A stretch of 64,000 bases of DNA from Longimicrobiales bacterium (lineage in GTDB: Bacteria; Gemmatimonadota; Gemmatimonadetes; Longimicrobiales; Gaopeijiaceae): the NCBI GenBank assembly GCA_965219445.1, contig CBDCNQ010000004.1, positions 640,001-704,000 on the forward strand, given 5' to 3'. The notes below the pieces were generated by a model. The model saw only the letters and a list, made by a program, of their open reading frames with translations. It made no database searches and was not told where the DNA came from. Of the stretch, positions 25,681 to 33,693 are shown in pieces. Position 1 is the first letter of the stretch. The number at the start of each line of letters is the position of its first letter. A program made the translations under genes and the position numbers.

Positions 25681-26052
25681 CTATCTAGGCCGCTTTGCGC
25701 CGTATTTCGACCGTCCCTGCCGACGATCACTCACGCCCGAGGCGTCCAACGTTCCCCTCACGATGTGGTACCGCACACCAGGCAGGTCCTTCACTCGCCC
25801 GCCCCGCATGAGCACGATGGAGTGCTCCTGGAGATTGTGTCCCTCTCCGGGGATGTATGACGTCACCTCGTACCCGTTCGTCAGACGTACCCGAGCCACC
25901 TTCCTCAGCGCCGAGTTCGGCTTCTTCGGAGTGGTCGTATACACCCGTGTACAGACGCCCCTTTTTTGGGGGCTCTTCTGCAACGCAGGGGACTTGTTCT
26001 TCTTCTGAAGCTCGCGACGTCCCTTGCGAACGAGTTGGTTGATGGTAGGCAT
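25681..26052 (-). CDS. rpsL: 30S ribosomal protein S12
   Basis: [23 protein letters not shown]. Confidence 0.99.
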
Positions 26053-26259
26053 ACGAGCCTGGGTTCAATGATCAAAGAAAAGCGCCACTCAGCGCGAATT
26101 CGACCGGAGCCGCCGGCACTTCAGGCAACTCCACTGGATAGCCAGAAAAATTTAAAAGAGGGCTATCGGGGTGTCAACGGGCCTCGACACCCCGAAATCG
26201 GCGCAGGATGGAGGATTCCGAGGGGTCGGGTGATGATCGGGCAGAGCCGCGATTCCTCG

Positions 26260-27443
26260 TCATGCCTTCGGCCTTCCCACTCCTTGATTCCCTACTTCCT
26301 TTTTTCCCCCGCCTGTCGCTACCGGAGCTGTTCCCGACCCCCCCACTGGACTGAAGGATCTTTGTCGGATCAGCATCGGCACCTGTGTGATGAAGTGAGC
26401 CGTTCGCAAGACACATTCCCACAGCTGAAACGGCCACCTAGGCAGTTCGTTGAACGGCCCCCCGACCCGTGCGGTCGCCTGGATCGGATTAGGCCAACGG
26501 AGGCGAAGCGCTCTCAGCAGATGGGCGGGGTGCCGGAAGGAGTACGCCATCGACGGACTATCCAAGATATAATGCTACTTTGTCGACCACTGGCTGAGCA
26601 CCGAGGGAAGGAGCCATCGGGGCACGTGTCTGTCCCTCTCCTCCGCTGGAATGCCGTCCAAACGGGCACCGAGAAGCTGGTGCGCCAGACACACGGTGGA
26701 TGCCACCCAACCCGCCCGCCGCCGATCTCCCTGCAGTAGATACCTCCAGTCAAAGTCCACGCGCAGTGATTCCAGCACGACGGCGACGTCGCATAACCAC
26801 AGGGCACGGTGCAAGCCGTGGCACAACATGTGGATGCACATGTACCGGAGATGATCCTCGGGCCCCAGTATCCGCACGTCGATGTCACCCAGCGGTACGA
26901 GCTGGGAACGCCCGTAGACATCGTCCAGCGAAGGGCGGTGGAGCTGCGCCAGACCCTTGTGCAAATCGACTGCGACCGGCTCGGCCGTCGGAGCGGCAAG
27001 CGCAGCCACCGCGGCCGTATGCTGTTCCGGCCGAACACAGAGGTCGATGTCTCCATGGGGTCGCAGCCCACGTTCCGGATAAAGGCGAGCGACTGCCCAG
27101 CCCTTGACCAGCAGCGGCTCCACACCCGCCGACCGAAGCCGCGTGATCGCCTGGACGATCTGGTGCTCCGCTCGGGCATTCTGAAGAGTATAGTGGCGGT
27201 ACGCCTGCCGAAGTTCGTGGGCAGCGGCCGACGTGCGTAGCTCGGACGATCGCACCCGCCACCATCCCAGGCTTGCCGCTCCCGTGCCGAGCAGCAGCGG
27301 TGTGACCTCATTGAGGGCGGCGGGCGAGAGAGACTGGGGTGGGGGGGGGGAGCACGCCAGGCCTGGTTGAGGACTGAGGCTATCAGCTTACCGCGTCGTC
27401 GGGGGTCGGTGTCAGTGCGCGGATCGGGAGGCGACGATCTCAA
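26260..27443 (-). pseudogene. Nucleotidyltransferase (NTP_transf_5-like, pol-beta superfamily), disrupted by a frameshift and an in-frame TAG
   Basis: Motif LLVKGWAVARLYPERGLRPHGDIDLCV, then VDLH and LWLCDV. The N-terminus (27443) changes frame at the G10 tract 27341-27350. TAG at 26575-26577 is followed in frame by ORF 26260..26565. Confidence 0.8.
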
Positions 27444-27467
27444 TACACCTATTTCACCACCCCAAGC

Positions 27468-28001
27468 TCAACAACCACATTGTTGTCTCGCCTGACCGGC
27501 AGGCAAACACGCACCGTTGCAGCATTCTCTGTTGCAATTGGTGCCGGTCGTGCATGGGTTGCAATTCGGAACGCCGCTACAATTCGTAACGCACGAGCCT
27601 TGTGCCGCCGCAAGTGGCGCCACGACCGACTCGATCACCGGCAGGAGGAGCGAGATCCCCGCTGCGCGTCCCAGGGTTCGTAGCATTTTCCGCCGCGAGT
27701 ATTGGGCGCTATCTGCCGGCAGTGTCACCGGGTCACTCAGCAAGTGTGCCCGGCTCAAGCGGTCCAGCGCCATCCACACGACCGCCTCGTCTGGCGGGGT
27801 TGCTGAATTCTCCCCCAAGAGCGCAGCCACCTCGGCCACGCTCGTTTGTCCATCGCAGCGCCGCCAGACCAGAGCGGCCGTGCGATTCAGGCAACGGGCC
27901 TTGTGGCGCTCCAGGTCGTAGACCAGGGTTTCGTCCTGAAGCTCCTCGACAATAAGCTTGTCTTGCCTCGCCCGGGGCATTACCGCTGTTGTCGTTTCCA
28001 T
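27468..28001 (-). CDS. PqqD/RRE-domain protein fused to a Tat-like leader and Cys-rich core (putative RiPP precursor fusion)
   Basis: RRE-like ETLVYDLERHKARCLNRTAALVWRRCDGQTSVAEVAALL...LDRLSRAHLL; leader SRRKMLRTLG...LPVIESVVAPLAAAQGS; 41-aa tail with 10 Cys. Confidence 0.8.
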   Translation of the reverse strand: METTTAVMPRARQDKLIVEELQDETLVYDLERHKARCLNRTAALVWRRCDGQTSVAEVAALLGENSATPPDEAVVWMALDRLSRAHLLSDPVTLPADSAQYSRRKMLRTLGRAAGISLLLPVIESVVAPLAAAQGSCVTNCSGVPNCNPCTTGTNCNRECCNGACLPAGQARQQCGC

Positions 28002-28051
28002 AGGTATCTCATTCCAAGTCGATGCGCGTGTGAACACTACAAACGTTCACC

Positions 28052-28095
28052 ATTCATGCATGGCACACAAGATTCATGCGTGGCACACATGCCAA
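28052..28095. promoter_or_regulatory. Candidate operator: 18-bp direct repeat with 20-bp period plus a small palindrome, upstream of the RRE-peptide gene
   Basis: attcatgcatggcacaca (28052-28069) and attcatgcgtggcacaca (28072-28089); tggca-caca-tgcca. Confidence 0.45.
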
Positions 28096-28135
28096 AAGTA
28101 GTCCCGAGCCAGCCTTTTCAGGAACCTCGGCCCGC

Positions 28136-28960
28136 CTATTCCGCTAACCGGTCCAGAATTGCTTCGGCGACTTCTTCGGCTTCACCACGGGCCCCCTTTA
28201 GCAGCATCGGCTCGGCCGTGGCGGAACGCAGCGTCGCGAGGGCCCGCTCCGGATCACGTCTGGCAGAGACGGTGTGGGCAAAAAGTTCCAACACCGCCCG
28301 CCCAGGCGAAAGCGTGCGCGGTCGCCAGCGAACACCGGGCCGGTAACTGGTCACGACGACCAAGCCCAACGGAAGCGGTCGGACACCGGTTGTACCGCCC
28401 AAATCTTCCGGGAGGATCTTCTTCGCGGGTCTACCCCCGTCCTGCCGCATCGCCAAAGGCCTCGGATAGGGATGCACCCGACCCCGCTCATCCAAAACGG
28501 CATACTCATCGGAATAATACGTCGCACCGGCCCTTAACAGGGCCCTGACCAGGGTTGACTTGCCGCTCATACTACTCCCCGGGATGACGATTGCCCTGCC
28601 ACGCCAGCCCACGACGCAGGCATGGACAAACACCCTTCGGCGGGCATAGTCTGCGACGTATAGCTGCATGTCCCTTTCGAGGGCTTCAAGTACCGGGTCC
28701 GTGTCCTTCGATCGTGCCAGCCGCACCGTGTCCCCATACAAAATATTGAAGCGGCGAACGTTCGAGCCGACCTTGGTTCCGCTTACGATCAGCGAATACA
28801 GACGTCCCACGCGGGGCCCGCGAGCCGGCTTGGCACCCGGTGGAAGCACGGATGCAATCCGATCCATGATCTCCGGGCTACTCGCCCGGATCCCAATGCG
28901 TAGCCCATAGGAGACGAACGAGATCCCTGCCGCCCACCCGAGGCGGTCGATTTTCTCCAT
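28136..28960 (-). CDS. HPr kinase-related P-loop kinase
   Basis: FVHACVVGWRGRAIVIPGSSMSGKSTLVRALLRAGATYYSDEYAVLD: His, Walker A and SDE signature of HprK-like kinases. Confidence 0.85.
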   Translation of the reverse strand: MEKIDRLGWAAGISFVSYGLRIGIRASSPEIMDRIASVLPPGAKPARGPRVGRLYSLIVSGTKVGSNVRRFNILYGDTVRLARSKDTDPVLEALERDMQLYVADYARRRVFVHACVVGWRGRAIVIPGSSMSGKSTLVRALLRAGATYYSDEYAVLDERGRVHPYPRPLAMRQDGGRPAKKILPEDLGGTTGVRPLPLGLVVVTSYRPGVRWRPRTLSPGRAVLELFAHTVSARRDPERALATLRSATAEPMLLKGARGEAEEVAEAILDRLAE

Positions 28961-29152: not shown

Positions 29153-29388
29153 AGCCTCGCGCCCACGCCCTCCCCCCCAACATAGTTGAGGTGAGCGTCG
29201 TCGCGGCCCCGCAGAGACGGTCCGCGGCGAAGCCGTGGAGCGAGCGTCGATCCCCCCGCGCGCGTAGCCTCACGCAAACGCCCCCCCCAACATGATTGAG
29301 GAGAGCGTCGTCAGGGTCCCGTGGCGACGATCCGCGGCGAAGCCGTGGAGCGAAGCGCCGGCGCAACGGGACCCTGACGACGCTCTCC
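29153..29388. repeat. Two degenerate ~110-bp tandem units; the second contains a perfect 23-bp inverted repeat (REP-like element)
   Basis: Shared core ccccaacat..ttgagg.gagcgtcgtc...tccgcggcgaagccgtggagcga at offset 110; arms 29300-29322 and 29366-29388 are exact reverse complements. Confidence 0.85.
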
Positions 29389-29394
29389 TACCAC

Positions 29395-33693
<4,299 letters not shown>

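Follow-up and report, generated by a model that had tools for sequence, protein, structure and literature searches.

Linear polyphosphorylated peptides (LPPs) have been described in Bacillota (Popov et al., Nat Commun 2026, PMC13381572). Their gene clusters encode a precursor (LppA), a RiPP recognition element (RRE; LppB) of the type that serves peptides made on ribosomes and modified after translation (RiPPs), a kinase (LppK), a nucleoside triphosphate (NTP) transferase (LppN), a signal-peptidase-I-like (SpI-like) peptidase (LppS) and an exporter (LppD), and they are situated in polysaccharide loci. The same text reports that the RRE presents the precursor to the signal-peptidase-type enzyme, that the HprK-like LppK polyphosphorylates Ser3 of the core, that precursor devoid of phosphate is cleaved poorly, and that no effect of the NTP transferase could be detected in the heterologous host (PMC13381572). 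LPPs are called restricted to Bacillota there, and the words twin-arginine, Acidobacteria and Gemmatimonadota are absent from the paper. Lasso peptides provide further precedents, with PadeK acting on paeninodin and PsmK/PsmN on pseudomycoidin (PMC9266682). Here we analyse a three-gene cassette carried by a 64,000-nucleotide stretch of a Longimicrobiales bacterium of the phylum Gemmatimonadota (GenBank assembly GCA_965219445.1, contig CBDCNQ010000004.1, positions 640,001 to 704,000), the whole of which is called the window below. The cassette combines an HprK-like kinase, a nucleotidyltransferase (NTase) and a protein in which an RRE is fused to a cysteine-rich tail. It is real and conserved and is best counted, as a variant, among RiPP systems of the kinase/NTP-transferase kind. 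The copy in the window is partly decayed.

The source genome comprises 4.56 Mb in 5 contigs and is 91.8% complete. On the minus strand of the window, rpoC (29395-33693) is followed by the open reading frame (ORF) of the kinase, that of the fusion protein, a broken set of NTase ORFs and rpsL (25681-26052), after which come rpsG, fusA and tuf. A preliminary description of this DNA had placed three co-oriented genes between rpoC and rpsL, and their ORFs indeed fill the interval 26260-28960, all on the minus strand.

The fusion protein is a member of a family that is very large and has no name. Its ORF extends up to a GTG at 28037 (27468-28037, 189 amino acids), but homologues begin at an ATG at 28001, which gives a protein of 177 residues. 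From the N-terminus it consists of the RRE, a linker, the sequence Y-S-R-R-K-M-L, a hydrophobic stretch ending in P-L-A-A-A-Q-G, the pair S-C and a 42-residue tail with 10 cysteines. It thereby carries an S/T-R-R-x-x-L motif, then a hydrophobic stretch, then an AxA-type site. Residues 24-73 match the Pfam family PqqD (PF05402) with 32.9-33 bits, against a cut-off of 23.4, and all 92 diverse family members that we compared match it as well. The secondary structure predicted for this domain is three strands followed by three helices. When the low-confidence structural model of the fusion protein was submitted to Foldseek, RRE domains accounted for all ten best matches (TbiB1, CteB, LynD and a lasso B1 protein), the first being TbiB1 with an E-value of 4.6e-3 and a TM-score (TMt) of 0.58; none reached E≤0.001. 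Among the PqqD models of NCBIfam, only PqqD proper and ScmD are matched at E≤0.1, both below cut-off. The assignment of the N-terminal domain as an RRE, proposed in the preliminary description, is thus supported.

A word-indexed search with the fusion protein returned 678 homologues, the best 120 of which (68-100% identical, about 175 residues) constitute our close-homologue set. A profile search over 1.84 billion cluster representatives (clusters at 50% identity) gave 6977, 4417 and 560 family clusters at E-value limits of 1e-3, 1e-10 and 1e-30, respectively, and the top 150 matches share length and layout. The nearest clusters are mostly labelled Acidobacteriota (Atlas), and the relatives retrieved with the fusion protein are metagenome-assembled genomes that carry the label Gemmatimonadales, Longimicrobiales or Gemmatimonadota.

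Sequence conservation divides the fusion protein sharply in two. In the close-homologue set, the mean pairwise identity is 84% for the RRE domain and 86% for the linker, signal and hydrophobic segment, which is nearly invariant in the alignment, versus 38% for the tail. The hypervariable core that had been anticipated is therefore observed. Close-homologue tails contain either 8 cysteines (48 proteins) or 10 (68 proteins), arranged in two conserved frameworks, and a cysteine is the last residue in 108 of the 120. These features persist among the 150 family representatives: the RR pair is found in 149 and is preceded by Ser in 105 and by Thr in 20, an even number of at least six cysteines, usually 6, 8 or 10, is present in 108 of 149 tails, and 78 of these tails have a CC doublet. 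Single tails gave sporadic weak Pfam matches to the UPF0506, Conotoxin and spider-toxin knottin families, which we read as a probable sign of shared cysteine spacing and not of homology. Some loci carry the fusion gene in tandem (L005, L006, L036, L058 and L073), with two copies in L005 and three in L006, and the tails differ between the copies compared in these two loci.

The kinase displays, in this order, the motifs FVHAC, GSSMSGKST and YYSDEY. No Pfam family is matched, and among the NCBIfam models TIGR04352 (HprK-related kinase A) comes first, with 52.1 bits and an E-value of 5e-14, a match that spans the P-loop region only and falls below the cut-off of 200; a divergent relative of the kinase scores 45.3 bits, also below cut-off. 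Eight residues (H113, G133, K134, S150, D151, D157, H163 and R172) are invariant in 24 homologues, and E152 is conserved in at least 90% of them. The AlphaFold2 model has a mean pLDDT of 88.2, and 47 PDB matches were obtained with Foldseek at E≤0.001; those listed are chains of phosphoenolpyruvate carboxykinase (PEPCK) and HprK/P. The best are ATP-dependent PEPCK and the HprK/P catalytic domain (1kkl_B, E-value 5.5e-5; 1jb1, TMt 0.59). The model thus predicts an HprK/P-PEPCK fold, in agreement with the HprK-like kinase announced in the preliminary description. When the PDB was searched by sequence, neither the kinase nor its profile gave matches above chance level. In an alignment by hhalign with the HprK of the same genome, the H, GKS and [AS]D[DE] elements are in register, with weak statistics (E-value 0.0017, probability 15%). 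The bona fide HprK family PF07475 is matched in the genome only by the true hprK on contig 2, and the cassette kinase fails to match it.

The third gene was identified through a piece of its interrupted reading frame (26575-27255) that matches PF14907 (NTP_transf_5) with 99.8 bits, against a cut-off of 31.2. It carries the motifs KGWAV and RPHGDIDL and is the sole PF14907 match in the genome. A sequence search of the PDB with the NTase profile gave chance-level matches only. Intact relatives have 365-388 residues. In the window, the 30-odd N-terminal codons are in another frame, the shift occurring within a run of ten C, and a TAG further on takes the place of a Glu codon of the relatives (Table 1). 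All 14 related NTase copies that were translated read through both sites. The same proline run is encoded in the relatives by interrupted codons, the longest C run being 7, so that it is the lineage of the window that acquired a long, slippage-prone homopolymer.

Two Logan contigs from two samples of one study (X1 and X6) carry both lesions exactly as in the window; the assembly may derive from one of the two samples. Since these independent contigs agree, both lesions are real, and the gene is a pseudogene in the source strain. The earlier identification of a nucleotidyltransferase thus holds for the family and its RPHGDIDL motif, but the source strain carries it only as a frameshifted and TAG-interrupted pseudogene. 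The full pathway therefore cannot run there: the strain has lost the NTase step, and at most the kinase and the precursor, whose genes are intact, can act. Two contigs from another study (X2 and X3) are otherwise near-identical to the window, but an A>C change at 26577 gives GAG on the coding strand. Their C tract is also longer than the 10 of the window, X1 and X6, by four in X2 (14) and by five in X3 (15); by our own count, a tract of 14 restores the NTase frame and one of 15 does not. The differences in tract length and between TAG and GAG may represent slipped-strand on/off variation, or plain decay.

We then considered whether the three genes belong together, as the preliminary description had supposed. 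The trio recurs in the order kinase, fusion gene, NTase in 13 of 16 related genome loci, 7 of which 16 are flanked by rpoC and/or rpsL; because of this recurrence, the arrangement is more than chance. In one locus (L016) the cassette is inverted relative to its flanks, and another (L007) has two cassettes. A metagenome search matched more than 600 stretches, of which 80 were kept and 22 annotated for neighbours; the counts that follow are not independent, since many of the loci are probably related. The NTase follows the fusion gene in 28 of the 38 loci with at least 1300 nucleotides downstream, versus 16 of 40 with at least 1000 nucleotides upstream in which the kinase precedes it: the kinase is the less constant partner. 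Among the 27 loci with both flanks, 9 have both genes, 11 the NTase only, 3 the kinase only and 4 neither.

Other neighbours recur around the fusion gene in metagenomes. A Peptidase_C25 gene stands beside it in 8 of the 22 annotated loci (L031, L034, L041, L056, L063, L073, L080 and L090), whether or not the NTase is present. The encoded proteins have 890-1350 residues with the gingipain-type domain at the end, and their genes usually lie downstream of the NTase; in several of these loci a pair of TPR proteins is encoded upstream. Peptidase_C25 was not found in the source genome at its 91.8% completeness, a search in which the control genomes gave no match either, and it is not a universal partner. 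Polysaccharide genes (Wzz/GNVR kinase, Glycos_transf_4, Poly_export, epimerase) adjoin several metagenome loci. Locus L072 also holds a CxxCxxCC-type gene and a MauE-thioredoxin fusion gene; the latter fits extracellular disulfide formation.

Some loci contain additional reading frames between or beside the cassette genes. A 383-residue protein of the CxxCxxCC (YkgJ) type is encoded between the fusion gene or genes and the NTase in L004 (6672-7823), and also in L005-L007 and L072; it scores 22 bits against a Pfam cut-off of 23, has a weak FliB-like NCBIfam match and is absent from the window. In L010 (6947-8647), ORFs of 281 and 283 residues on the opposite strand separate the fusion gene from the NTase. 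The lone fusion gene of L017 and L018 adjoins a pair of opposite-strand ORFs that, by eye, resembles a histidine kinase of the LytS type together with a LytTR response regulator.

The spacer between rpoC and rpsL was followed across the phylum. The fusion protein was detected in 30 of 401 sampled phylum genomes, including 5 of 70 from the family of the window (E≤1e-5). In 13 of 30 rpsL loci examined in this family, that of the window included, the end of rpoC lies at most 1.5 kb upstream of rpsL. The spacer holds parts of the cassette in 6 family loci, among them the window and a genome of the same genus; in three of the six the cassette is inverted and encodes a kinase of just 40-43% identity, and one has the fusion gene alone. 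A longer stretch from a further genome contains a full inverted cassette with a 6-cysteine tail. The spacer of a second further genome contains a stretch that weakly resembles the kinase (28% identity), another that partially matches the PqqD portion of the fusion protein, and ORFs of 400 and 318 residues that look, by eye, like an NTP_transf_5 protein and a methyltransferase. The spacer has thus housed versions of the cassette in several genera, as a result either of early presence with frequent loss or of repeated insertion.

How the cassette relates to the systems described so far can now be specified. Both the cassette and the LPP systems combine an RRE with an HprK-like kinase and with an NTP transferase that is uncharacterised, and neither has a lasso cyclase; in both, the kinase and NTP-transferase genes adjoin the precursor gene (the NTase being a pseudogene in our source strain), precursor genes number one to several, and the precursor has a conserved N-terminus and a variable C-terminus. 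They also have in common a frequent location within polysaccharide loci, a patchy phyletic pattern and a leader cleavage of the signal-peptidase-I type, which for the cassette is only presumed. The differences are nevertheless substantial. The RRE is discrete in LPP systems (LppB), whereas it is the N-terminal domain of the candidate precursor here. The LPP leader is YxxPxVLxHQxIxFETxxS, and YxxPxVLxHQ occurs in 0 of 270 proteins of the fusion family, in which the leader includes an internal twin-arginine-type signal free of [Y/W]xxP. The core is Cys-rich in the cassette, and the LPP family has no Cys-rich twin-arginine precursor. The cassette encodes neither an LppS-like peptidase nor an MsbA-like exporter. 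Finally, its hosts are Gemmatimonadota and mostly Acidobacteriota (Atlas), those of LPPs Bacillota. The cassette thus fails the defining features of LPPs but shares their enzyme logic.

Like the phosphorylated lasso systems (PadeK/ThcoK, PsmK/PsmN), the cassette has a homologue of HPr kinase in which His, Lys and acidic residues are conserved, together with a homologue of nucleotidyltransferases and a PqqD RRE of the B1 type. Lasso B1 proteins are also the best structural matches of the RRE, with the low-confidence model. In contrast to these systems, there is no Asn-synthase-like cyclase and no B2 (Transglut_core3) peptidase beside the precursor, in accordance with the preliminary description; the tails have no conserved C-terminal Ser; and the expected product is a disulfide-rich exported peptide, not a lariat. 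The HPr-rel-A system of NCBIfam (TIGR04352) provides the best match of the kinase and likewise pairs a kinase with a PqqD-family protein, for which it has its own partner model. The cassette kinase differs in remaining far below the HPr-rel-A cut-off and in matching the P-loop region only. The cassette had been presented as a candidate for an undescribed system. We found no published description of the fused form in the literature, although the supplements of the LPP paper, which lay outside the search, may list related clusters; a set of kinase, NTase and RRE without cyclase had, however, been published in 2026 as LPP (PMC13381572).

We consider, with slightly more confidence than doubt, that the fusion protein is a precursor in which the RRE and the twin-arginine-type signal form the conserved leader of an exported, hypervariable, disulfide-rich peptide of about 40 residues. 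By this scheme, the cytoplasmic RRE would act in cis and dock the kinase and/or the NTase. These would place a phosphate on a Ser or Thr close to the junction of leader and core and subsequently extend it, by analogy with LppK, which acts on Ser3 of its core, and with PsmK/PsmN. Candidate sites are S136, just ahead of the first cysteine, and S102 of the S-R-R sequence. The modified protein would then insert through the twin-arginine translocation (Tat) machinery, or through Sec, with the RRE remaining inside, housekeeping signal peptidase I could cut after the AxA-like site, and oxidation of the tail outside the cell would yield a knottin-like peptide. TatC is encoded in the source genome.

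Several observations weigh against this scheme. Built onto the observed architecture, folds, linkage and NTase lesions, its chemical and cell-biological steps are, every one of them, modelled on relatives. The structural model of the fusion protein has a mean pLDDT of only 58.7. The twin-arginine motif begins at residue 102 of 177, so that the signal would be internal, with about 100 residues ahead of it, and the Pfam TAT_signal model matches just 3 of the 92 diverse members. The [Y/W]xxP leader motif of lasso and LPP RREs occurs in 0 of the 120 close homologues and in 2 of the 150 representatives anywhere in the protein, 0 in the linker. Fewer than two cysteines are present in 13 of the 149 representative tails. 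A crude ratio of nonsynonymous to synonymous substitution rates (dN/dS; 50 of 91 pairs kept) amounts to 0.42 in the tail, against 0.24 in the leader, with no pair above 1, though tail dS is about threefold higher, possibly because tails have been swapped or misaligned. The interval from rpoC to rpsL holds only three genes, none of them for a dedicated peptidase or exporter, and the kinase is absent from 24 of the 40 testable metagenome loci. As the close-homologue tails end so regularly in Cys, the C-terminal-Ser rule of the lasso kinases is not applicable. Finally, the NTase is dead in the very strain that provided the window.

Part of this evidence would also suit a stable single-pass membrane sensor or regulator, with a PqqD-like domain in the cytoplasm, a transmembrane helix and a variable Cys-rich knob outside, whose cytoplasmic side is switched by the kinase and the NTase. 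The very strong sequence conservation of the cytoplasmic domain and hydrophobic segment, the lone genes of L017 and L018 beside what we read by eye as a LytS/LytTR-like pair, the polysaccharide, TPR or Peptidase_C25 surroundings of many loci and the lack of a dedicated protease in the cassette are all consistent with such a function. We nevertheless regard it as rather unlikely: most members have an AxA-like site right after the Pro-containing end of the hydrophobic segment, the outer part would be just some 40 residues long, and the tail changes far more rapidly than the remainder and occurs as tandem variants, more as in arrays of secreted peptides than as in receptors. Alternatively, the tail may be exported while the two enzymes gate its export (phosphorylation of the Ser in S-R-R might, for instance, make the signal unreadable to Tat) or act on a polysaccharide or lipid carrier. 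The residue preceding RR is Ser or Thr in 26 of 26 kinase-linked fusion genes, whereas in kinase-less loci it is Ser in 13 of 25 and Asn in 12 of 25; all N-R-R genes, however, come from loci of one shared layout and probably of one lineage, so that this contrast is confounded by relatedness and gives a weak hint. S/T-R-R is, moreover, the Tat consensus itself, and this counts against a gating role. The presence of several loci within polysaccharide gene sets would agree with action on a carrier. In the LPP study, deletion of LppN changed nothing detectable (PMC13381572), which would suit an NTase that does not act on the peptide, but each of the relatives described, LppK, PadeK and PsmK, acts on the core peptide (PMC13381572, PMC9266682). 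We judge this second alternative distinctly improbable.

The set of kinase, B1-like RRE and nucleotidyltransferase is that used to tailor phosphorylated lasso peptides (PMC9266682), and one of the cassette genes is broken in the source strain. The locus might then be a decayed paeninodin-like lasso cluster that has lost its cyclase and B2 peptidase. The cyclase-less layout, however, recurs in the 13 trio-bearing genome loci, neither a cyclase nor a B2 family was seen among the neighbours of the 22 annotated metagenome loci, and a signal and a Cys-rich tail follow the RRE in one and the same protein. The Asn-synthase homologue closest by is about 26 kb distant, adjoins a PMT_2 gene and contains a glutamine-amidotransferase domain, and the only Transglut_core3 match of the genome is borderline (26.1 bits) and on another contig. 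With Asn-synthase matches of the AsnB type and no better peptidase candidate than this one, we rejected the lasso remnant, which we hold to be extremely improbable.

Returning to the fusion protein as a precursor, a bolder version of this proposal is possible, though we advance it tentatively and would sooner bet against it. The family would then represent a vast, unnamed class of self-chaperoned ribosomal peptides that unite a recognition element, a twin-arginine leader and a knottin-like core in one polypeptide, and in which phosphorylation and nucleotidyl or glycosyl transfer by the cleavage site would license export and release. Gemmatimonadota would long have kept the cassette in the rpoC-rpsL spacer, where it was repeatedly inverted, trimmed or lost, and a hypermutable poly-C tract would switch it off in the source lineage.

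If the fusion proteins are such precursors, thousands of genes of soil bacteria would be libraries of small disulfide-rich peptides behind one recognisable leader, which could be mined by a Pfam match followed by the RR motif. Kinase/NTP-transferase peptide chemistry would extend from Bacillota to Gram-negative soil phyla, and the fusion of an RRE to its own substrate would bear on how RREs pass substrates to enzymes. The ties to polysaccharide loci and to core transcription and translation operons make questions of function and regulation testable.

Table 1. Positions in the window of the cassette genes, their parts and nearby elements.
Feature	Positions	Strand	Basis or remark
HprK-like P-loop kinase	28136..28960	-	ORF, 274 aa, intact
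Fusion protein gene, candidate precursor	27468..28001	-	177 aa + stop; homologue start ATG at 28001
PqqD/RRE domain, about residues 9-90	27732..27977	-	Pfam PF05402, secondary structure, Foldseek
Linker, Y-S-R-R motif and hydrophobic segment ending PLAAAQG, residues 91-135	27597..27731	-	Alignment
Cys-rich tail, residues 136-177, 10 Cys, starts S-C	27471..27596	-	Alignment, region identities
NTP_transf_5 nucleotidyltransferase, pseudogene in three pieces	26260..27443	-	PF14907
C10 homopolymer, NTase frameshift	27341..27350	-	Reading frames, sample contigs
In-frame TAG in NTase, Glu in relatives	26575..26577	-	Translations, sample contigs
Two 72-nt repeat copies and hairpin with 31-nt arms, between rpoC and kinase	29172..29389	.	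Repeat search
Sigma-70-like promoter match, TTGACA-17-TAAATT	26149..26177	-	Consensus match only

The GC content is uniform over the region. The sigma-70-like promoter match sits upstream of rpsL and downstream of the cassette. Just past rpoC, two direct copies of a 72-nucleotide repeat (29172-29243 and 29282-29353) are 86% identical, and an inverted repeat with 31-nucleotide arms forms a hairpin at 29299-29389. Portions of 24-30 nucleotides of the 72-nucleotide repeat were found at 5 further sites of the genome. The ensemble looks like a small element of the repetitive extragenic palindromic (REP) type or a terminator.

Elsewhere in the window, an ORF of 376 residues at the position of ribosomal protein L4 (19302-20432) has a long C-terminal extension rich in Lys, Ala and Pro; its likely identity as L4 is read from its sequence and its place beside an L3-like ORF. 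At positions 2-2283, a gene of the glutamine-dependent Asn-synthase type, with a GATase domain, adjoins a PMT_2 glycosyltransferase gene and is unrelated to the cassette.

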